From contig MGSS01000144.1 of the NCBI GenBank assembly GCA_001798595.1, forward strand, positions 14,032 to 78,031: DNA of 64,000 nucleotides, read 5' to 3'. This stretch comes from Deltaproteobacteria bacterium RIFCSPLOWO2_12_FULL_60_19 (lineage in GTDB: Bacteria > Desulfobacterota > Binatia > UBA9968). Within the stretch, counting starts at the first letter, position 1; the number at the start of each line of letters is the position of its first letter. The notes beneath the pieces were generated by a model. It did not search any database. It had not been told where the DNA came from and was given only the letters and a program-made list of their open reading frames with translations. Shown here in pieces: positions 27,742-45,687 of the stretch. Made by a program: the position numbers and the translations under genes.

Positions 27742-28813
27742 CGTAGGGGGTCAGACATTTAATTATTTATTTTCTTCGTCTTGCGTTCCTCAGACCCTCT
27801 GTCAAATCCTCCACGCTTTGTCTCAAACCAGCTTCTTTCGTCATTCGCTCTCTCAATCCCTTTAGGCCCAGGCTCAGGGAGACTTGGTCTCGGCCATATC
27901 GCTTGGCCACATCACTAAGCTTTATCCCTCCCAGTTCCTGCCCCAGGTAGGCTACAACCATCCTGCCAAACGATCCGCGACGGTCCTTGCTCTTGGAGCG
28001 CAGGAGCTCGGGGGATAGCCCGTAGCGACCACACGCCGCTTCCTCGATGTCCGCAAGGTCGATTCGGATTGCCTGAGACGGTTCCTTTTCTATCCTACTA
28101 CTTACCCGCTCCACAAACTGCTCATCTCCCAAATACCGCTGCTCCTTAGTGGCGTAGAGATCCTCCCGATGTCCCTCAGATATGCCCTCCAATACAAATT
28201 CCTTGTATCTCCTTACCGCCTGCGAGCGCCTGGGTGAAAACTGGCTCAAAATCAAATCGGTCTCGATATCTACCTCAACCTTCAAGGGCTTACCCAAATA
28301 ACGACGGTGGCTGCTCCACGGATACTCTGATGGCTCCTTCACAAGCTTGGAGCGAACCGGATTCAAATGCAGATAGCGCACTAACTCCAGCAGATAGGAG
28401 TCCCGGTCGCAGAGAATCGCCTTGTAGCGGCCCTGAAAGAGGTGGCCCACCAGCCCGTATTTGCGGTTGAAATAGAGCGTGTAGCTCTGCTGCAGCCCCT
28501 GCATGACCTTGGCCAGCGGCGTCAGGCACGCTTCGACGAGCAAGTGAACGTGATTGGCCATTAACACGTAGGCGTACAGCCGAAAACGATACCGTTTCTG
28601 ATACCGGCTGAGCAACTCAAGGTAGCGGGCGCGGTCAAGATCGGAACGAAAGATCTTCTGGCGCTGATTGCCGCGAGCAATCACATGGTAGAGGCCGCCA
28701 GGGAAGTGGACTCGGGGCTTTCGTGCCATGGCTTGGGCCATACCACGAGGCAAGCGTACGATGCAAGAATTAAATAATTAAATGTCTGACCCCTACGATG
28801 TCTGACCCCTACG
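27742..28813. mobile_element. REPtron-like unit: a Y1 (HUH) transposase gene bracketed by ~27-bp inverted REP-like repeats starting GTAG, with a tandem 16-bp copy at the right end
   Basis: Left repeat CGTAGGGGGTCAGACATTTAATTATTTA (27742-27769). The right repeat (28771-28797) is its reverse complement with one G fewer. A second tandem ATGTCTGACCCCTACG copy lies at 28798-28813. Confidence 0.6.
27767..28753 (-). CDS. IS200-like/REP-associated tyrosine (Y1) transposase with C-terminal HTH extension
   Basis: HUH motif ANHVHLL, and catalytic Tyr region GRYKAILCDRDSYLLELVRYLHLNP. It is 328 aa and paralogous to 31822-32682. Confidence 0.8.
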   Translation of the reverse strand: MPRGMAQAMARKPRVHFPGGLYHVIARGNQRQKIFRSDLDRARYLELLSRYQKRYRFRLYAYVLMANHVHLLVEACLTPLAKVMQGLQQSYTLYFNRKYGLVGHLFQGRYKAILCDRDSYLLELVRYLHLNPVRSKLVKEPSEYPWSSHRRYLGKPLKVEVDIETDLILSQFSPRRSQAVRRYKEFVLEGISEGHREDLYATKEQRYLGDEQFVERVSSRIEKEPSQAIRIDLADIEEAACGRYGLSPELLRSKSKDRRGSFGRMVVAYLGQELGGIKLSDVAKRYGRDQVSLSLGLKGLRERMTKEAGLRQSVEDLTEGLRNARRRK

Positions 28814-31816: not shown

Positions 31817-32737
31817 AGGGGTCAGGTCTTGCTTCTTGTATCAGGCCTGTTTGCCAACCGGCTTACGGTAGCGTAGTGCAGGTCCAGAACATCCGCGACG
31901 TCACTCTGGCTGTACCCGTAACGATGCACCGCACGGACAACCAGGGCGTCTCGCCTGGCCTTGGTTAGCTTCCCTTCAAACAGGCTCTTGAGTGTCGGCC
32001 GGCTTAAGTATCTCTGGCTCCTAGGAATCTCTGTGACGGCCTCGTAACCTTTTACATACCCCCTGAGCCTCTCTACAAAGTCCTCTTCCCCCAACAATAC
32101 CTGGGCTTGCATCTTCTCCCAGATCGACGGCCGATCGATCCCTTCTCTGACAAATCGACGGTAGTGTCTAGCGGCCGAGTATCTTCTCTTACCAAACTGA
32201 CTCAACACCCAATCGACGGAGAGCCACGGGAGGTGCTTTTCCAGCCCTGCTGTAGCCCCGTAACTGCTCCACTTCCATTGCTCGACTCTCTTTACGGCCT
32301 TGGCCCTGACGGGGTTTAGCGCCACGTAGCGACAGACTTCCAAAAGGTGGCTGTCTTTTTGTATCAGCACGGCCTTGTAGCGGCCTTGAAACAGATGCCC
32401 TACCGTTCGGTGGCGTCGATTATAGAGTTGGGTGTAGACGCCGTTGAGCTGGCGCATCCCCTTGGAGAGATTAGCCTCCGGTGTTTCAATCACCAGGTGA
32501 TAGTGGTTATCCATCAGACAGTAGGCGTGGCAGAGCCAGTTAAAGCGGTTGACGACCTTGCCCAGGACCTCCAGGAAGGCTTTGCGGTCCCCATCGTCAT
32601 CGAAGATGTCCTCTCGGGCGTTGCCCCGGGAGGTCACATGGTAGACCGCACCGTCAAATTCCACTCGGAGAGGACGAGCCATGATTCACGGAACTATCAA
32701 GATAAGCCATCGATAGCAAGAAACAAGACCTGACCCC
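31817..32737. mobile_element. Second REPtron-like unit: Y1 transposase gene bracketed by 21-bp inverted repeats GGGGTCAGGTCTTG(C/T)TTCTTG
   Basis: The left repeat (31817-31837) and right repeat (32717-32737, reverse complement) have 1 mismatch. They share the GGGGTCAG core with the first unit. Confidence 0.55.
31822..32682 (-). CDS. IS200-like/REP-associated tyrosine (Y1) transposase paralogue
   Basis: HUH motif DNHYHLV and catalytic Tyr region GRYKAVLIQKDSHLLEVCRYVALNP. It is 286 aa. Confidence 0.8.
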   Translation of the reverse strand: MARPLRVEFDGAVYHVTSRGNAREDIFDDDGDRKAFLEVLGKVVNRFNWLCHAYCLMDNHYHLVIETPEANLSKGMRQLNGVYTQLYNRRHRTVGHLFQGRYKAVLIQKDSHLLEVCRYVALNPVRAKAVKRVEQWKWSSYGATAGLEKHLPWLSVDWVLSQFGKRRYSAARHYRRFVREGIDRPSIWEKMQAQVLLGEEDFVERLRGYVKGYEAVTEIPRSQRYLSRPTLKSLFEGKLTKARRDALVVRAVHRYGYSQSDVADVLDLHYATVSRLANRPDTRSKT

Positions 32738-32774: not shown

Positions 32775-32813
32775 CGCAAAAAACGAAGGGCCGCCTGTTT
32801 AGACGGCCCTTCG
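32775..32813 (-). terminator. Rho-independent terminator downstream of the Kelch/PKD gene
   Basis: On the minus strand: CGAAGGGCCG-tctaaacag-CGGCCCTTCG followed by TTTTTTG. Confidence 0.6.
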
Positions 32814-32838
32814 TGGTCCAGCAACCGGGAATCCGCGA

Positions 32839-34983
32839 CTACGGCAGCGTTGAGTTGTAGAGCTGCCCGTCATCAACGGCAGAGCTACCCGGTTTCATGC
32901 TCTTCGGCACACTCACCTCGACCGATCCGGCGCAGCTTCCGCCCTGGCCGTCGTCTGCCGTGAAGCCAACGCGATAGACCCGGCCGTTGCTATTGCCGGA
33001 GCGCTCCGCCCTGAGCAGCACGGTGCTTCCCTGGATTACTGCATCCGGGCTGGTGTCGCCGTCGCCCAGACCGTTCACCCGCTCATCCTGGGTTACGCCT
33101 GTTATGGTGATTGTCACGCCGTCATTGTTCGGATCGCTGACGCCTACGATCCCGACCGACACCAGCTTGTGGTTCGGCGGCCAGAGCCGCGATGGACTAG
33201 CCTGCGCAAGTTGGCAGATCGGAGGATCATTGACGTTCTGAACGGTAATGCTGACCCACTCATCGGGCTCGCCAGCCGCAGGATTGTTGCTCAACTGACC
33301 GTCGCTTACGCTAAGTTTAAACACCAGCGTATCCCCGCCGGGTCCCACCGGAGGCGCTGTGAAGCTAGGCGTCGCTGTGTCAGCCCCAGTTAGAGTCACC
33401 AGTGTCCCGCCGGTTTGTACCCAGCTGTATGTAATCGCATCCCCGTCCGGGTCGCTGCTGGCGGTACCATTCAGTGTCACCAGCGCCCCTTCGTCCTTCG
33501 TCTGGTCAGCACCGGCGTTAGCGACGGGCGCATGGTTTACCTGCTCGACGGTTACCTGGACCGTATCCGTGTCGAAGAGATAGCCGTCGGAGACAGTCAA
33601 CTCGAAGGTCAAAATCTCGAACCCGCCGACACCGCCGGGAATGAGCGGGGCCGTGAAGCTAGGCGTTGCAGTGTCGGGCCCAGTGAGAGTTACCAGCGTC
33701 CCGCCGGTTTGCACCCAGCTGTACGTGATAGCATCGAGATCCGGGTCGAAGCTGGCGCTGCCGTCGAGCATTACCGGCGCATCCTCGTTGACCGTTTGGT
33801 CACCGCCGGCATGCGCCTCCGGCGCGAGATTCACATTACCGACGGGGATTCCGTTCGCATCAGTCAGCACCCAGACGTCGTTCAGGGCGAAGAACTCAGC
33901 TCCAGAGCAACCGCCGCTGCAGCTGCGTCCTGCGAACATGACCATCCGGTTCGTCGCCGGGTTATAGACGGCGGTAGGGGAGCTTCGCCCGCGGGGTGGC
34001 CCGCCGGTGGGAAAAAGCTGCGTCCAATTTGGGGTACCTCCTAGTCCGTTGGCAACCTCAAGGACCCACACATCGTTAAGATTGCCCGCAACGTTTCGGT
34101 CGCCACCGAAGACCGTCATCCGGTTCGTCGCCTGGTCGTAAACCGCCGTGTGCATCGAGCGCGAGGGAGGGGGCCCACCGGTGGGGAAAAGCTGGGTCCA
34201 GGTGGGCGACCCCAATCCGTTGGCGTTCTGCAACACCCAGACATCGTCGGACGGACACGGCCCCCCGTCTACGCACCCCGAAAACACGATCATCCTGTTG
34301 TTTGTCGCATCATAGACCGCTATGTGTTCCGACCTTGCAGACGGCGGCCCGCCGGTGGGGAAAAGCTGGGTCCAGGTGGGCGACCCCAATCCGTTGGCGT
34401 TCTGCAACACCCAGACAGCGTTACTGTTGGCGCTGCAAGCGTTGCTCCTGCCGCCGAAGACGACCATGCGGTTCATAGCGGCATCGTAGACGGCCGTGGG
34501 TCCTTGACGAAGGTTGGGTGGCCCACCGGTGGGGCTGAGTTGCGACCAATTGGGCGTTCCGCCTGTCCCATCGGCGTTGGTAAGTACCCAGACATCATTG
34601 ACCGCACCAAAACAAGAACCAATGTTGGGATCTCCGGCAAACACAATCATGCGGTTGTTCACCACATCGTACACAGCACTATGGTAGCCCCGGGCACTTG
34701 GTGGCCCGCCAGTGGGGAAAAGCTGCGTCCAGGTGGGCGTCCCTCCCAATCCGTCGGCATTGGTCAGCACCCAGACATCGTTGAACAGAGGGTGCCCTGT
34801 AATCACTCCAGGGCCATTCATTCCCCCGAACACGATCATACGGTTATTGGTCGAGTTGAAGACCGCGGTATGGAGAACCCTTACGCCTGGTGGGCCGCCG
34901 ATCGGGCTAAGCTGCGTCCATGTCTGCGCCGCCGCCTGGCCGACCAGGGCGAAGACGAGAAGAAGGATTACCCCCCCCCCCAA
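32839..34983 (-). CDS. Secreted multi-domain protein: N-terminal Kelch-type beta-propeller (6-7 blades) plus two C-terminal PKD/Ig-like domains
   Basis: Repeated TW(T/S)QL..GGPP..R..H.AVYD...NRMIVFGG blades, then a duplicated D.DGD.ITYSWVQTGGTLVTLTG module. In the sequence as given, the TTG start sits inside a G11 tract. An in-frame ATG plus signal peptide is reached only with a G10 tract (see findings). Confidence 0.7.
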   Translation of the reverse strand: MGGGVILLLVFALVGQAAAQTWTQLSPIGGPPGVRVLHTAVFNSTNNRMIVFGGMNGPGVITGHPLFNDVWVLTNADGLGGTPTWTQLFPTGGPPSARGYHSAVYDVVNNRMIVFAGDPNIGSCFGAVNDVWVLTNADGTGGTPNWSQLSPTGGPPNLRQGPTAVYDAAMNRMVVFGGRSNACSANSNAVWVLQNANGLGSPTWTQLFPTGGPPSARSEHIAVYDATNNRMIVFSGCVDGGPCPSDDVWVLQNANGLGSPTWTQLFPTGGPPPSRSMHTAVYDQATNRMTVFGGDRNVAGNLNDVWVLEVANGLGGTPNWTQLFPTGGPPRGRSSPTAVYNPATNRMVMFAGRSCSGGCSGAEFFALNDVWVLTDANGIPVGNVNLAPEAHAGGDQTVNEDAPVMLDGSASFDPDLDAITYSWVQTGGTLVTLTGPDTATPSFTAPLIPGGVGGFEILTFELTVSDGYLFDTDTVQVTVEQVNHAPVANAGADQTKDEGALVTLNGTASSDPDGDAITYSWVQTGGTLVTLTGADTATPSFTAPPVGPGGDTLVFKLSVSDGQLSNNPAAGEPDEWVSITVQNVNDPPICQLAQASPSRLWPPNHKLVSVGIVGVSDPNNDGVTITITGVTQDERVNGLGDGDTSPDAVIQGSTVLLRAERSGNSNGRVYRVGFTADDGQGGSCAGSVEVSVPKSMKPGSSAVDDGQLYNSTLP
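34971..34981. repeat. Homopolymeric tract C11 (G11 on the coding strand) at the 5' end of the Kelch/PKD gene
   Basis: Direct reading: 11 consecutive C residues. Confidence 0.9.
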
Positions 34984-35049
34984 GTAACGGTTTGAACATT
35001 CGGCTTGTGTTTTTCATGACGCTGCTGTCCTTTCCGCCCATTTTAGGCA

Positions 35050-36162
35050 ATGGCAGATAACTATGAGGTGCCCCGCTCTAGCAGTGGGCAAAGAGGTTGT
35101 CAAGTTCTTAGTCGGGATTTTTTTCCTGGCTTGATCTGGCGGATTTTTGATGTTATCGGGAACGACGTGCGGATCGATATTGAATTCAATTCCGGCGCGC
35201 AACTCCCTATGGACGCGATTCCGGAGCTGGCGCGGTTGGCGGAAGAGCATGGCTTTGGCTGCGCGTGGGGCGGAGAGGCGAATAATAAAGATCCGACGGT
35301 GATGTTGTCGGCCATTGCCGCGGTCACCAGGCGCCTTCAGGTCGGATCGGCGGTCTATCACATTCTCGGCCGGACGCCGGCGACGCTGGCTTTGCAGGCA
35401 GCGGGGCTCGATGAATTGTCCGGCGGTCGATTTCTGCTCGGACTCGGCGTCTCGAATCCGACCATAGCCAGATGGCACGGCGTGCCGAACGATCATCCTC
35501 TCGGCCGCGTCAAAGAGTATCTCGATATCGTGCGACTGGCGATGAGCGGCGAGAAGCTCAATTTTGAGGGCAAATATTTCTCGTCGCAGGCGTTCAAGAT
35601 GGCCTTCAAGCCGTCGGGCAGGAAGGTTCCGATCTACCTCGCGGCCTTCGGCCCGAAGATGAGCCGGTTGGCGGGCGCGGCGACCGACGGCGTCATGATC
35701 AACATGGCCAATCCGGGAGAGATGCGCCGCATCGTGGAAGATGTCCGGCAGGGCGCCGATGAGGCCGGCAAAAACTTCAAGGAACTGGAAATCATCTGCA
35801 AGATACGCTGTTCCGTGGCGAAGGACTATGCCACCGCGCGCGAGGCGCTGAGCCACGCGCTGACTTACTATGCGCTGGCCGACTATTATCGTGTTCTTTT
35901 GACGCGGATGGGATTCGGCGCCGAGGTCGAGGCGATGCGCGCGGCGTGGCACTCCGGCGGCTTTCACGCGGCGAGGGCTCTGGTTTCGGACCGGCTGTTC
36001 GCCGGCCTGCCGCTGGTGCCCGCGACCTCCGTGGAAGAGATCAAGGAAAAGATCGAGCCGTATCGGGACGCCGGTGCGACGCGGATTATTCTCCCGTACG
36101 TGGCGTCGTCGGGAGAAACCGAGATGGTCGACGAGTTGAGAGAGTTTATCAACGCGTGGTGA
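35050..36162 (+). CDS. LLM-class (luciferase-like) flavin/F420-dependent oxidoreductase
   Basis: TIM-barrel LLM signatures (RIDIEFNSG...ELARLAEEHGFGCAWGGE...GLGVSNP). The start is uncertain; a GTG at 35167 is an alternative. Confidence 0.75.
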   Translation: MADNYEVPRSSSGQRGCQVLSRDFFPGLIWRIFDVIGNDVRIDIEFNSGAQLPMDAIPELARLAEEHGFGCAWGGEANNKDPTVMLSAIAAVTRRLQVGSAVYHILGRTPATLALQAAGLDELSGGRFLLGLGVSNPTIARWHGVPNDHPLGRVKEYLDIVRLAMSGEKLNFEGKYFSSQAFKMAFKPSGRKVPIYLAAFGPKMSRLAGAATDGVMINMANPGEMRRIVEDVRQGADEAGKNFKELEIICKIRCSVAKDYATAREALSHALTYYALADYYRVLLTRMGFGAEVEAMRAAWHSGGFHAARALVSDRLFAGLPLVPATSVEEIKEKIEPYRDAGATRIILPYVASSGETEMVDELREFINAW

Positions 36163-36190
36163 AGCAGCGGGTTGAATCGTGTACCGTGCC

Positions 36191-36267
36191 GTCATTCCGG
36201 CCAAGCTCGCGGTAGCGGGCGCGAGCCGGAACCCAGAAAGACTGGATTCCCGCTTTCGCGGGAAAGA
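36191..36267 (+). repeat. Structured ~80-nt intergenic repeat, copy A, ending in terminator-like hairpin TTCCCGC-tttc-GCGGGAA
   Basis: GTCATTCCGGCCAA...GAGCCGGAA(C/T)CCAG...CTGGATTCCCGCTTTCGCGGGA. Lies just downstream of the LLM gene stop. Confidence 0.6.
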
Positions 36268-36300
36268 CGCAAGGAGCAGAGCGTCAATTGAGAGGTTGCT

Positions 36301-36702
36301 ATGCCGTTTGAGTTGCTGAATCCGCAGGGATTGGAAAAACCGGTCGGTTATGCGCATGTCGCAAAGATCACGGGCGGGAAAATCGTTTACGTCGCTGGGC
36401 AGGCGCCGTTCGATGCCGATGGAGCGGTGGTGGGGAAGGGCGATTTTGCCCGCCAGTTTCGTCAGGTCATACACAATCTGAAGCTCGCGGTCGAGGGCGT
36501 GGGCGGGAGGCCGAATCAGTTTGCCGTGCTGACCATGTACTTGACCGACCTTCCGGCCTATCTTGCCGCCAAGAAAGAAATCGGCGCCGCCTATCGCGAA
36601 GTCTTCGGCAAATATTTCCCGGCGATCACGCTCGTCGAGGTCAAGAGCCTCTATCATGCGGACTGTATGGTCGAGATCTCGGGCGTCGCGGTAATTGACT
36701 AG
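36301..36702 (+). CDS. ridA: RidA/YjgF family reactive-intermediate deaminase
   Basis: 133 aa with a YjgF/chorismate-mutase-like fold pattern (GKIVYVAGQ...TMYLTDL...AITLVEV). Confidence 0.85.
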   Translation: MPFELLNPQGLEKPVGYAHVAKITGGKIVYVAGQAPFDADGAVVGKGDFARQFRQVIHNLKLAVEGVGGRPNQFAVLTMYLTDLPAYLAAKKEIGAAYREVFGKYFPAITLVEVKSLYHADCMVEISGVAVID

Positions 36703-36735
36703 CAGGCCGTTTCTAAATCCGTGAAATTTTTTGAA

Positions 36736-36825
36736 CGTCATTCCGGCCAACCCCCGCGATAGCGGGGGGCGAGCCGGAATCCAGGGAATTTCGGGAGTAC
36801 TGGATTCCCGCTTTCGCGGGAGTGA
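36736..36825 (+). repeat. Structured intergenic repeat, copy B, with the same terminal hairpin, immediately followed by the group II intron 5' end
   Basis: Shares the 14-nt 5' end, GAGCCGGAAyCCAG, and the 3' 24-nt hairpin with copy A. The central inner hairpin differs (CCCCCGC-gata-GCGGGGG). Confidence 0.6.
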
Positions 36826-38671
36826 GTGCGCCCGTGAAGGCGCCACATCAGCATGGTGAAAGTCCATGCCGGAGTATGCCACAGCTCCGTAGCCGAAGGT
36901 AACTGCGTCGCCCCTAGGCGAGGTGGGGAGCAACCGGAGGCGAACTGTCGGTCCGTAGGAGGACGAACTCGATTCGGCGGGGAGCTGCGACGAGCCTGCT
37001 CATTCATGGCGAAGTCCGAAAGTCGCTGGACACGCTGGCGTGGTGGGTGAAGCGATGTTCAGGCAGCCCACGTGGTTGGAGACGGAACGACGGGAAGGTG
37101 TGGTGCAGTAAGCGGGGAGACCTGCACGGTAGGTGAGCGGTGCAGGAGTCAGAGTCTCCATAGTACCGATGCGGGGCAACCTGCGAGAGGTGCGGGAAGC
37201 AAAACCGCGCTGAGGGAAGGGAGATAGGAAGGTGGAAGCGTGAGCGACACAACGGGGCAAAGCGAAAGCGAAGCGTCGGTAGTGCCCGAAGGGGCTACAC
37301 AAGGCGCAGAGACCCAGGGCCGAGATTGGTCGTGGGTGGAAGCCGAGGTGTGGAGCGAGCGCATGTTGGCGGCGCTGGAGAACGGCGTCAAAGGAGGCAA
37401 ATGGTTTAGCCTGATCGACAAGGTCTATCGTCCGGCAACGCTTGAGGCGGCGTGGCGCAAGGTAGCCGCGAACGCGGGAGCAGCCGGAGTAGACGGGCAA
37501 AGTGTTGAGCAGTTTGCGGCGCGAGCGGAAACGTATCTCGAAGAACTGGGAGAAGCGCTCAAGACGGGGAGCTACAAGCCGCTGGCCGTGCGGCGCGTGG
37601 AGATTCCGAAGGGGCAGGGAAAGCTGCGTCCCCTGGGGATTCCGGCGGTCAAAGACCGCATCGTGCAAACGGCGTTGAAGCTTGTGATCGAGCCGATCTT
37701 TGAGCGTGAGTTCCTGGACATGAGCTACGGTTTTCGTCCGGGTCGTGGCTGCAAAGACGCTTTGCGAGAAGTGGACCGGCTGCTCAGAGGAGGTTACACC
37801 CGCGTGGTGGACGCCGATCTTTCGAGCTACTTCGACACGATTCCTCACGCGCGTCTGATGGAGCGGGTGGGGGAGCGCGTGAGCGATGGCCGGTTGCTTC
37901 AGTTGATCGCAGCGTTTCTGCAACAAGACATCGTCAAGGGACTGGAGAGGTGGACGCCCGTAGGGGGCACGCCGCAAGGCGCGGTGATCAGCCCCTTGTT
38001 GGCGAACATCTACCTTCACTCGCTGGACTGTCATATGCGGGAACGCGGTTATCGGATGGTGCGCTACGCTGATGACTTCGTGGTGCTGTGCCGCAGCGCC
38101 GAACAGGCGCAAGCGGCACTTGCCGAGGTAAAAGCCTGGGTAGAAGCAAATGGCCTGAGTCTCAATGCCGACAAGACCCATGTGGGTGACTGCCGGGAAC
38201 CGGGCCAGGGCTTTGAATTTCTGGGCTATCGCTTCGAGGCGGGGCGGCGTTGGGTACGGCGCAAGAGCATCAGAGCGCTGCGTGACCGTATCCGGGCCAA
38301 GACCAGTCGCACACGGGGAGACAGTCTGCGTCATATGATTGCGGACTTGAACCCGCTGCTCAAGGGCTGGTTCGGCTACTTCAAGCATGCTCATCCGATG
38401 ACCTTTAGCGGGATGGACGGCTTTACTCGCAGACGGCTGAGGGCGGTCCTGCGCAAGCAGGAGAAACGCCCTGGCCTGGGTCGGTGTCTGGCCGATCATC
38501 TTAGGTGGTCCAAAGTTTTCTTTGCCGACTTGGGACTCTTCACCATGACGGAGGCCCATGCACTGGCAAGCCGATCCCGATGAGGAAACCACCGACTGGA
38601 GAGCCGTGTGCGGGAGAACCGCACGCACGGTTCGGAGGGCGGGGAGAGCGAAAGCTCTTCCCGACCCCTAT
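36826..38671 (+). mobile_element. Bacterial class C (IIC) group II intron, full length (~1.85 kb)
   Basis: 5' end GTGCGCC (36826). The IEP ORF sits in domain IV. Domain V GAGCCGTGTGCGGGAGAACCGCACGCACGGTTC (38603-38635). Domain VI has a bulged A (CCGACCCC). The 3' end is ...CTAT (38671). It is inserted directly after a hairpin, as IIC introns do. Confidence 0.75.
37240..38583 (+). CDS. Group II intron-encoded reverse transcriptase/maturase (no endonuclease domain)
   Basis: RT blocks including YADDFVV, plus an X/maturase domain. It is 447 aa and lacks an HNH/En C-terminus, consistent with class C. Confidence 0.9.
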   Translation: MSDTTGQSESEASVVPEGATQGAETQGRDWSWVEAEVWSERMLAALENGVKGGKWFSLIDKVYRPATLEAAWRKVAANAGAAGVDGQSVEQFAARAETYLEELGEALKTGSYKPLAVRRVEIPKGQGKLRPLGIPAVKDRIVQTALKLVIEPIFEREFLDMSYGFRPGRGCKDALREVDRLLRGGYTRVVDADLSSYFDTIPHARLMERVGERVSDGRLLQLIAAFLQQDIVKGLERWTPVGGTPQGAVISPLLANIYLHSLDCHMRERGYRMVRYADDFVVLCRSAEQAQAALAEVKAWVEANGLSLNADKTHVGDCREPGQGFEFLGYRFEAGRRWVRRKSIRALRDRIRAKTSRTRGDSLRHMIADLNPLLKGWFGYFKHAHPMTFSGMDGFTRRRLRAVLRKQEKRPGLGRCLADHLRWSKVFFADLGLFTMTEAHALASRSR

Positions 38672-39135
38672 CGACGGAGCGCGTACCTCTATCCTTAAAT
38701 CCAGATCGAACCTGCGCGAGGTGACACTCAACCGTCAGGTTTCCGGCGTCGCAGCGGACATTTTTGACTCCATTCTGGGTAAAATCATCCCAAATTACGG
38801 CAGTGGATGTCCAAACCGGGTACTCGTTTCCGCCTATTTACCAAGGCCCTTCTCGGTATTTCGCCTAGTTAGGAGTTTGGCATCGGGTTTGCTTCAAACC
38901 ACACTCATGGACCAACTGCAAACTTTGAGGAAATCTCCGGCGCTCGACGGGTTTGAAACTCCGACCCTGGATGAGATCGTCTGCCTTTGGCAGGCGTTCC
39001 GTTCCAATGGCTTGGAGGCTGAGGAAGCTTGGAATGCAATCGTCGCGGGGTTGGCCCTGGAAGTGGCTTTTCCGCGGCGGCCCGGTGTAACCCGGATCGA
39101 GCACTAAGCAGGCGGCAAGCGAAACCAAGAACGTC

Positions 39136-44265: not shown

Positions 44266-45687
44266 CTAATCGCTGATACCGTAATCTTTCCAGCGCGCCG
44301 CGACGCGATCGAGGTGCTCTTTCGGGGGCAGCGAGATCGCCGGATAGTCGTGTTTCCGGGTGGCGTCGATCGCCACGCGCGAGCCGACGTCGCGTATCGT
44401 GTGGTGCTGCGGGACTGAGGGTGGAGCCTGGGAAGGGTCCAATCCGACGGCCTGCACGTCTCTCTCGATGTACACGTCTTTATCCGGCCTCACTCTCCAG
44501 CTCATCGCCCAATCGACATCGAAATCGTCCCAGACGTCGATATCGTCGTCGACGACGACGGTGATCTTGCCGAAGCCGGTGCGCAACGACCAGATGCCGT
44601 ACATCACCTGCCGCACCTGCCCCTCGAACTGCTTCTTCATCGACACGACGCAATAGGCGCCGCTGCCGCCGGCCTCCTTGAGCCGGACATCTTTGATCGG
44701 GAGGCGGAGGCCGTATTTGAGATGCTTAAACAGGGGCCACTCGCGCCCCACGCCGCGAATGCAGCTCGACTCGGAAGGCGGCCTCTGGCTGATGAAGGCC
44801 TGGTAGATCGGGTTGTTGCGGAAGGTCATGCACTTGATGTTGAAGAAGGGCTGCTTGCCCGCCGGTCCCATGTAGCCCGTGTATTCTCCAAATGGGCCTT
44901 CCATCTCGGTAGCGTTGGGCGGGATCTCTCCCTCGAGCACGATCTCGGCCGTGGCCGGGACTTCAAGCGGAACCGTCTCGCAGGGCACCAGCTCCACCGG
45001 CTCGCCGCGCAGCGCGCCCGCCACCGCATATTCGTCCAACTCCTCGGAGATTTTCGATACGGAAACGTAGCCGATGGTCGGATCGGCGCCGATGACTACG
45101 GCGATCGGAGTAGGCTTGTTCTGCTCGTCGTTTTTCCGCACGTGCCACGCGGCATCCTGGCGCTTGCCGATCAGAAAGCCGGTTTTGTTGGGCCCTTTGA
45201 CCTCCATGCGGTAGGTTCCGATATTGCGCACTCCGGTCTCAGGGTCCTTCGTGACTACATAAGGCGACGTGAAGAAGGGCCCGGGATCTTCGCCCACCGT
45301 CCAGATAGGAACCGGAAGCTTTTGGATGTCCACCTGGTTACAGTGCAAAATATTCTCTTTGCAAGGGCCGGTCTTAACCATCACCGGCGCGATGGGTTTC
45401 TCCAGCGCGCGGTCCCACTTGCGGTTGATGCCTTCGACGGAATCGGTCTCCAGGCCGATGGCGTAAACCTCGCGCGATACGCCGAGAGCTCCCGCCACGA
45501 CGGGAATGTTGAAGCCCTTGACGTTTTCGAACATCAAGGCTGGCCGCTTCGCCGGCGGCAGTTGGTAGAACAGCTGGCGACAGACGGCGGCGATCTCCCA
45601 GTCTTTGTCGACCTCTTTCTTGACTCTTTTTAACTTTCCTTTTTCTTCGAGTACGGCCAGATAGGCCCGCAAATCGCGATAAGCCAC
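44266..45687 (-). CDS. UbiD-family (prFMN-dependent) decarboxylase
   Basis: 473 aa with UbiD N-terminal and core domains. No ubiX partner is adjacent. Confidence 0.8.
   Translation of the reverse strand: MAYRDLRAYLAVLEEKGKLKRVKKEVDKDWEIAAVCRQLFYQLPPAKRPALMFENVKGFNIPVVAGALGVSREVYAIGLETDSVEGINRKWDRALEKPIAPVMVKTGPCKENILHCNQVDIQKLPVPIWTVGEDPGPFFTSPYVVTKDPETGVRNIGTYRMEVKGPNKTGFLIGKRQDAAWHVRKNDEQNKPTPIAVVIGADPTIGYVSVSKISEELDEYAVAGALRGEPVELVPCETVPLEVPATAEIVLEGEIPPNATEMEGPFGEYTGYMGPAGKQPFFNIKCMTFRNNPIYQAFISQRPPSESSCIRGVGREWPLFKHLKYGLRLPIKDVRLKEAGGSGAYCVVSMKKQFEGQVRQVMYGIWSLRTGFGKITVVVDDDIDVWDDFDVDWAMSWRVRPDKDVYIERDVQAVGLDPSQAPPSVPQHHTIRDVGSRVAIDATRKHDYPAISLPPKEHLDRVAARWKDYGISD

Follow-up and report, generated by a model that had tools for sequence, protein, structure and literature searches.

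To our knowledge, nearly all documented cases of phase variation by simple sequence repeats come from pathogens and commensals adapted to a host. In Campylobacter jejuni and C. coli, which are AT-rich, lack mismatch repair and carry about 20-30 tracts per genome, intragenic runs of G8-G11 set contingency genes such as the autotransporter gene capA and Cj1295 to ON or OFF, and tract lengths are surveyed across strains by the PhasomeIt approach, while in porA and opc of Neisseria meningitidis and in fim of Bordetella the poly-G/C run lies in the promoter spacer. In the pilC genes of Neisseria the run is said to lie in the part coding for the signal peptide, reportedly as described by Jonsson and colleagues in 1991. 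Natural pilC tracts range from G9 to G20 with modal lengths of 9-10 and vary between isolates (PMC5953494). To count as phase variation, by a published definition, a genetic change must affect a single locus, be reversible and reach a minimal rate, and loci such as siaD (C7) of N. meningitidis, the homopolymers of Mycobacterium tuberculosis and mga (C8/C7) of group A Streptococcus are regarded as mutation-prone but not phase-variable (PMC11868660). The locus described here is a run of eleven Gs within the 5' coding part of a gene for a putative secreted Kelch/PKD protein, situated in a 64,000-nt stretch (hereafter the window) of Deltaproteobacteria bacterium RIFCSPLOWO2_12_FULL_60_19, a metagenome-assembled genome from the Rifle aquifer.

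The tract is located at 34971-34981 on the minus strand (C11 on the plus strand) and is the sole G/C homopolymer longer than 7 nt within the window, in line with the initial annotation of this DNA, which had found no other such tract in 64 kb; the GC content, given there as 62%, was measured to 59.1%. When calculating the number of G/C runs of at least 11 nt expected per 64 kb, a first-order Markov model gave 0.046 and an extrapolation of the run-length decay, with a roughly five-fold drop per added base, gave ~0.002; G11 is longer than chance predicts for this genome composition, which a G7 run alone would not be. The minus strand reads GGCGGAAAGGA-CAGCAGCGTC-ATG AAA AAC ACA AGC CGA ATG TTC AAA CCG TTA CTT-G11-TAATCC. 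The annotated open reading frame (ORF) of 714 aa (OGQ78446.1; 32839-34983, minus strand) starts at a TTG whose final G opens the run, and translation from the upstream ATG at 35017 gives MKNTSRMFKPLL followed by GGGGNPSS... until the TAG at 34909-34907. The product of this frame, here called the OFF state, is a 36-codon ORF (MKNTSRMFKPLLGGGGNPSSRLRPGRPGGGADMDAA; 34907-35017, minus strand), contained in the list of ORFs within one of 47 aa (34907-35050, minus strand) that includes the ATG 35017 and ends at the same TAG; both the position of that TTG within the tract and the stop after 36 codons had been noted before and are confirmed here.

Removing either one or four Gs joins MKNTSRMFKPLL to GG(G)VILLLVFALVGQAAAQTW..., and with G7 or G10 the upstream ATG is in frame and the whole protein can be read. 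With G8 or G11 the tract is +1 out of frame relative to this ATG, while G9 and G12 would lead into a TAA formed directly 3' of the run. The stops of the G8, G9, G11 and G12 states are reached 0-24 codons on, and a change in repeat number toggles the locus between an open and a closed frame. That G10 restores the frame had been predicted correctly, but the in-frame allele found in nature, as described below, is G7 and not G10.

The upstream ATG (35015-35017, minus strand) is, judged by conservation, the true start codon, since homologues of 65-83% identity read straight through the position of the tract. In the alignment it is invariant in all homologous loci and followed by a conserved n-region, which in the window consists of the twelve codons MKNTSRMFKPLL (34982-35017, minus strand) with charges at K2, R6 and K9, also present in the N-termini of the homologues. 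These read MKSTSKMFKALFGGVILLLVFALVGQAAAQ (P0036), ...MISTRRMFKPLLRVAILLLVFAVVGQAEAQ (P0027), MKSARKVFRGFLSVILLLVFAPVGQAVAQ (P0045), MKSTSRMTKALLGGGVILLLGFALVGQAAAQ (P0125), MKSTSRMFKALLGGILPL... (P0127) and MKSTSKMFKALLGGVILLGF... (P0136), and in all six the Shine-Dalgarno sequence, the ATG and the pattern MK.TS.MFK.LL are conserved in frame. The Shine-Dalgarno sequence GGAAAGGA (35028-35035, minus strand) lies 10 nt 5' of the ATG (11 nt according to the initial annotation) and 7 nt in homologues, and its sequence GGGCGGAAAGGA is kept in the contigs L001-L005, L007 and L008. The proposal that this ATG and its n-region form the real start has thereby held, and orthologues starting at an internal TTG or GTG were not seen, the homologues starting at the upstream ATG.

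The h- and c-regions of the putative signal peptide, VILLLVFALVGQAAA (34927-34971, minus strand), come into frame with this start only at tract lengths of G7, G10 and further steps of three; the predicted cleavage site follows AAA. The complete signal peptide, MKNTSRMFKPLLGG(G)VILLLVFALVGQAAA followed by Q, has a peak of 3.6 in a 9-residue hydropathy window and A-A-A before Q; with its charged n-region, hydrophobic h-region and AxA motif it is predicted to be a Sec substrate of signal peptidase I (SPI), as had been suggested for the ATG frame, and the AxA motif and the signal-peptide sequence are kept in homologues. Neither a lipobox Cys nor a twin-Arg motif was found in the signal peptide.

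The 5' leader GTTATCTGCCATTGCCTAAAATGGGCGGAAAGGA (35028-35062, minus strand) is conserved nearly base for base in L004, L005, L007 and L008, in contrast to the protein identity of only 75-83% in those homologues. It contains an additional in-frame ATG (35041-35039), missing from the initial annotation, which in L006 is replaced by ACG. The leader showed no match in Rfam and no significant fold, and could have a role exceeding that of a Shine-Dalgarno sequence, for example as an operator or leader element.

A comparison with closely related genomes, proposed earlier as a check, was positive. The 90%-identity protein cluster holds three more members: P0123 (732 aa), which starts upstream with MGGKDSSVMKNTSRMFKPLLGGVILLL... 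and reads ...KPLLGGVILLL, P0122 (713 aa), starting MGGVILLL, and P0121 (656 aa), starting MGGGVILLL. Their contigs (L001, L002 and L003), MEGAHIT assemblies from three ENA analysis accessions (ERZ27254759, ERZ27254836 and ERZ27254861), are syntenic with the window and 99.6-99.9% identical to it, so that in total four assemblies, each one consensus per sample, cover the locus. The tract is G11 in the window (OFF), G7 in L001 (ON, with the full 732-aa protein in frame), G8 in L002 (OFF) and G11 in L003 (OFF); the two G11 copies may share reads. Compared by blastn with the window, L001 is 99.81% identical over 22.2 kb with the 4-nt difference in the tract as the only gap, L002 is 99.6-99.7% identical over 17 kb with the 3-nt difference in the tract as the only small gap, and L003 is 99.93% identical with zero small gaps. 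The four-way alignment of 16.5 kb contains 70 segregating sites, and length differs at three places only, namely in the tract, by a group II intron and by a repeat unit of 174 nt. Among the homopolymers of at least 6 nt in the 22-kb stretch shared with L001, 19 of 20 are invariant, including four A8/T8 runs, the exception being the tract. The pattern is that of localised hypermutability, the repeat number varying (G7/G8/G11/G11) between conserved flanks, and at least two independent length changes have struck this site among genomes differing at ~0.4% of positions. In all OFF alleles the remaining ORF is intact.

In more distant homologues the position of the tract is occupied by interrupted or shorter G strings: GGA GGT G in L004 and L008, CGG GTG G in L005, TCA G in L006, GGG GGG A in L010 and GGG GGG GGC G, an in-frame 10-nt equivalent, in L007. 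The ancestral state is therefore an in-frame Gly-Gly(-Gly)-Val, and the pure G run is derived.

Taken as a mechanism, Gly-Gly-Val codons (GGA GGT G) would have become GGG GGG G by synonymous change and then expanded, with slipped-strand mispairing during replication presumably adding and removing Gs. In the G7 and G10 states the Shine-Dalgarno sequence and the ATG would yield a complete Sec signal peptide and a protein of 725-732 aa would be exported; in the G8 and G11 states, the latter being the allele of the window, translation from the ATG would stop after 35-36 codons, and with G9 or G12 at the TAA right after the tract, so that no secreted protein would be made in any out-of-frame state. 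The benefit may lie in escape from phages or predators or in modulation of adhesion. The G run is thus a candidate, and probably a genuine one, for a length-unstable ON/OFF switch of expression of the slipped-strand contingency type. What the assemblies show directly is the tract with its frame logic, a start that is conserved and three tract lengths in nature, ON as well as OFF; from them we infer slippage as the mechanism, reversibility, heterogeneity within the population, a rate of switching and a selective benefit. The phase-variation switch postulated in the initial annotation is accordingly supported as a candidate, to which the three natural lengths have been added, while the fast and reversible part of the switching remains presumptive. 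Measured against the published definition (PMC11868660), the single-locus genetic change is what is found here, and reversibility and a rate above ~1e-5 per cell are presumed; a hint at reversibility, although indirect, is that an allele growing by single steps from G7 to G11 would at one point be the in-frame G10.

Several observations weigh against such a switch. The lengths are known from four consensus assemblies alone, there is a single long tract in 64 kb with no evidence of a multi-gene phasome within the window, and three of the four assemblies are OFF, one of them perhaps also lacking a Kelch blade, which gene decay would fit equally well. The G7 tract could have arisen by chance, in the same way as the meningococcal siaD C7, which is plausible because GGG makes up 20% of the Gly codons (p(GGG GGG) ~0.04); G11 could not. 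Furthermore, every tract length is tied to its own flanking haplotype of single-nucleotide polymorphisms (SNPs), both G11 contigs representing one haplotype. The substitutions within the gene all lie at most 60 nt from the tract, L001 differing at 34921, 34927, 34948 and 34956 and L002 at 35002, 35010 and 35013, and the haplotypes are regarded as real since several of the flanking SNP states also occur in the alignment of more distant homologues. Because each length sits on its own haplotype the alleles may be old and fairly stable variants of strains, or exchanged by recombination, as the haplotypes possibly are, rather than products of frequent slippage. The pattern of one haplotype per length fits stable strain alleles, but a modest-rate switch seen as one consensus per sample would look the same, and the linkage speaks against an extremely high rate for the shorter tracts.

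The explanation that competes best with a switch is an irreversible strain-specific inactivation, either pseudogenisation or a one-way "mutation-prone adaptive variation", in which a chance G7 was the easiest break point and G8 and G11 are fixed null alleles; it is a serious possibility but the less probable of the two. It draws on the linkage of alleles to flanking haplotypes, on the three OFF assemblies out of four, with L003 in addition one propeller blade short, and on the plausible chance origin of the G7 precursor, and the similar cases of siaD C7 and the M. tuberculosis homopolymers have been classed as not being phase variation (PMC11868660). However, getting from G7 to G11 requires either four single steps via the in-frame G10 or a rare 4-nt jump, and one ON and two distinct OFF lengths occur within 0.4% divergence. 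The other 2.1 kb of the ORF carries neither a disabling mutation nor any substitution in any allele, and a relative (L007) has kept the in-frame 10-nt equivalent. As far as is known, a tract of 11 nt is highly unstable in every system studied, which also speaks against this explanation.

An error of sequencing or assembly, with a true length of G10 and an intact gene, is improbable. Homopolymers of 10 nt or more are known to suffer more indel errors and stutter in the polymerase chain reaction (PCR), even on Illumina instruments, and a correction by one base would give a perfect gene. The initial annotation had ranked such an error as the alternative only, and a simple consensus error is indeed disfavoured, since the G11 was reproduced by a second assembler in the MEGAHIT contig L003, and since the tracts of the other assemblies deviate by 3 and 4 nt and not by 1, with the G8 allele likewise out of frame, which is beyond the homopolymer miscalls of Illumina. 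The exact protein of the repaired G10 frame is moreover missing from a collection of 15 billion proteins. The window derives from 150-bp paired-end Illumina HiSeq 2000 reads; IDBA-UD was the assembler, and mapping of the reads served for curation (PMC5079060).

The further searches for copies of the locus were negative. An exact look-up of the deposited 714-aa product gave no contig on record, and DNA patterns spanning the tract (18 nt, N4-24, 14 nt) had zero matches in JGI metagenome contigs and GTDB species-representative genomes. Protein-guided scans of the same two collections gave a best match of at most 53% identity, and from these null results the organism is concluded to be absent from both. 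A protein search with the N-terminal 145 aa revealed no new near-identical fragments, only homologues of at most 83% identity.

Programmed recoding, by slippage of the RNA polymerase or by +1 ribosomal slippage of tRNA-Gly, would give constitutive expression and not a switch in the DNA, and there is little to recommend it. Long homopolymers can support transcriptional slippage, and the G8 and G11 alleles would both need the same +1 correction; some leakage by slippage from OFF alleles is likely. On the other hand conservation of the frameshift is lacking, with the G7 allele and every homologue in frame, no stimulatory RNA structure was detected (fold z-score 0.51 against shuffles) and no slow codon or stop codon follows the slip site. 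A search against Rfam gave no family at the gathering score, only one chance-level hit. With no Rfam family, no structure above that of shuffles and no conservation of the shift, recoding was rejected as the main mechanism.

The use of the annotated TTG with synthesis of the 714-aa protein as deposited is very improbable, even if it is the public gene call and leaves the h-region and the AxA site in place, since the sequence preceding the TTG (AAACCGTTAC) contains no Shine-Dalgarno sequence, the product lacks a charged n-region, all homologues use the upstream ATG, which a conserved Shine-Dalgarno sequence precedes, and the start itself moves with the length of the tract (MGGGV as opposed to MGGV), and it was therefore rejected as an artefact of the gene caller.

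A second poly-G run was identified in homologue loci only, G9 in L007 (50-75) and G10 in L004 (1-27), the latter contig starting 6 nt before the run. In both cases it is placed between TTGACA and TG-n-TACAGT with a spacer of 14-15 nt, a promoter assigned by consensus only, and 240-400 nt 5' of P0125 and P0036, the related Kelch genes; the two samples have runs of different length. The arrangement looks like a promoter-spacer switch. Between this run and the Kelch gene there is a conserved small ORF of 33 codons (MNQVASR.RDSRRKEERSD...). It is conceivable, and is put forward here tentatively, that the secreted Kelch proteins of this family have come under poly-G switches more than once and at two control points, the signal-peptide coding part in the window and the -35/-10 spacer in L004 and L007, as an evolved form of bet-hedging in a free-living subsurface bacterium. 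If true, it would imply strong fluctuating selection on these surface-bound or secreted proteins within groundwater and soil communities, for instance through recognition by phages or predators.

The repaired protein contains a Kelch beta-propeller with six blades, a pair of K319L-like PKD domains and, at its C-terminus, a weakly immunoglobulin-like domain of ~130 aa. The matches in Pfam were PF24681 for the Kelch propeller (193 bits, gathering cut-off 50), the K319L-like PKD family PF22352 (102 bits, cut-off 27) and PF13415 (84 bits). For the C-terminal domain (32839-33230, minus strand) the only match was to Big_9 (E 0.006), and these ~130 aa showed neither a Pfam family above threshold nor a C-terminal sorting signal; the domain carries the motif LWPPNHK...GV.DP..D...I.I..VTQDE.VNGLGDGDTSPDA...LRAERSG..NGRVY, which is kept in P0017 and P0039 (45% overall identity). 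L003 lacks 174 nt corresponding to one Kelch blade of 58 aa (L003:8012-8087; window 34172-34421), and the missing part is flanked by identical direct repeats of 76 nt (34172-34247 and 34346-34421). The loss is either a real in-frame deletion by recombination or a collapse in the assembly; a five-blade propeller would probably be non-functional.

When reading the promoter region by eye, a σ70-like candidate TTGACA-N17-TAGAGC was noticed at 35075-35103 (minus strand), ~58 nt 5' of the ATG; a scan with a consensus that needs T at position 6 of the -10 box did not report it. A hairpin resembling an intrinsic terminator (14 bp, 9 of them GC, followed by a T run; 32783-32814, minus strand) is situated 25 nt after the stop codon, and judging from these putative signals the Kelch/PKD gene looks monocistronic. 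The divergent neighbour encodes a luciferase-like (LLM) oxidoreductase (35209-36162, plus strand) and is followed by the genes for RidA (36301-36702) and for a group II intron reverse transcriptase/maturase (37240-38583, plus strand). The intron itself (window 36826-38671) is shared by the window, L001 and L003, and L002 lacks exactly its 1846 bp; genomes of more than 99.6% identity are polymorphic for this insertion. On the downstream side of the Kelch gene lies a Y1-transposase-like gene (31822-32682, minus strand), and a second gene with a Y1 (IS200-like) transposase domain was found at ~27767-28753 (minus strand); both have a C-terminal helix-turn-helix and are conserved in all syntenic contigs, and are possibly domesticated genes resembling the REP-associated tyrosine transposase (RAYT). 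Long antisense ORFs of 281-639 aa (35014-36933, minus strand; 34150-34995, plus strand; 37000-38628, minus strand) were rejected as genes, being high-GC artefacts opposite real genes. The substitutions among the four assemblies are strongly clustered (35514-35580, 38888-38957, 44317-44482 and 32626-32707), L002 having for example 19 inside 67 nt of the luciferase-like gene and L001 having 12 inside 70 nt, which suggests short recombination imports or a consensus of mixed strains rather than clock-like divergence.

The mechanism proposed for the G run is a textbook one, but a series of ON and OFF alleles is uncommon for a metagenome-assembled genome from the subsurface. That an aquifer bacterium known without cultivation has one ON and two OFF alleles in nature, all obtained from metagenome assemblies, suggests that contingency loci occur also in free-living subsurface communities, and fluctuating selection is likely to act on the secreted Kelch/PKD protein. 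At the practical level the gene model on deposit (TTG, 714 aa) is incorrect, and frameshifts at homopolymers should not undergo automatic "correction" in metagenome-assembled genomes.

Compared with the described systems, the locus most resembles pilC1 and pilC2 of Neisseria gonorrhoeae and N. meningitidis, in which a poly-G run in the 5' coding part likewise sets a surface or secreted protein to ON or OFF by frameshift, and the length of 11 in the window falls within the proven range of poly-G phase variation (G9-20 in pilC). It differs from Neisseria, a host-restricted pathogen with dozens of loci and measured rates, in being one locus of an uncultivated aquifer bacterium known from assemblies alone. 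The poly-G genes of Campylobacter share the same ON/OFF logic, and the comparative calling of tract lengths is the same as that used here, although the present genome has 59% GC. Only the homologue loci L004 and L007 bear a likeness to porA, opc and fim, the window containing no such run in a promoter spacer. The G7 ON allele resembles the siaD C7 class, a short G/C run made of ordinary codons that occasionally inactivates a surface determinant, but unlike that class the window allele G11 is well beyond chance and three lengths coexist among near-identical genomes. Since the pilus-associated adhesin encoded by pilC and the Kelch/PKD protein are unrelated, the resemblance to pilC is a functional analogy and not membership of the same family.

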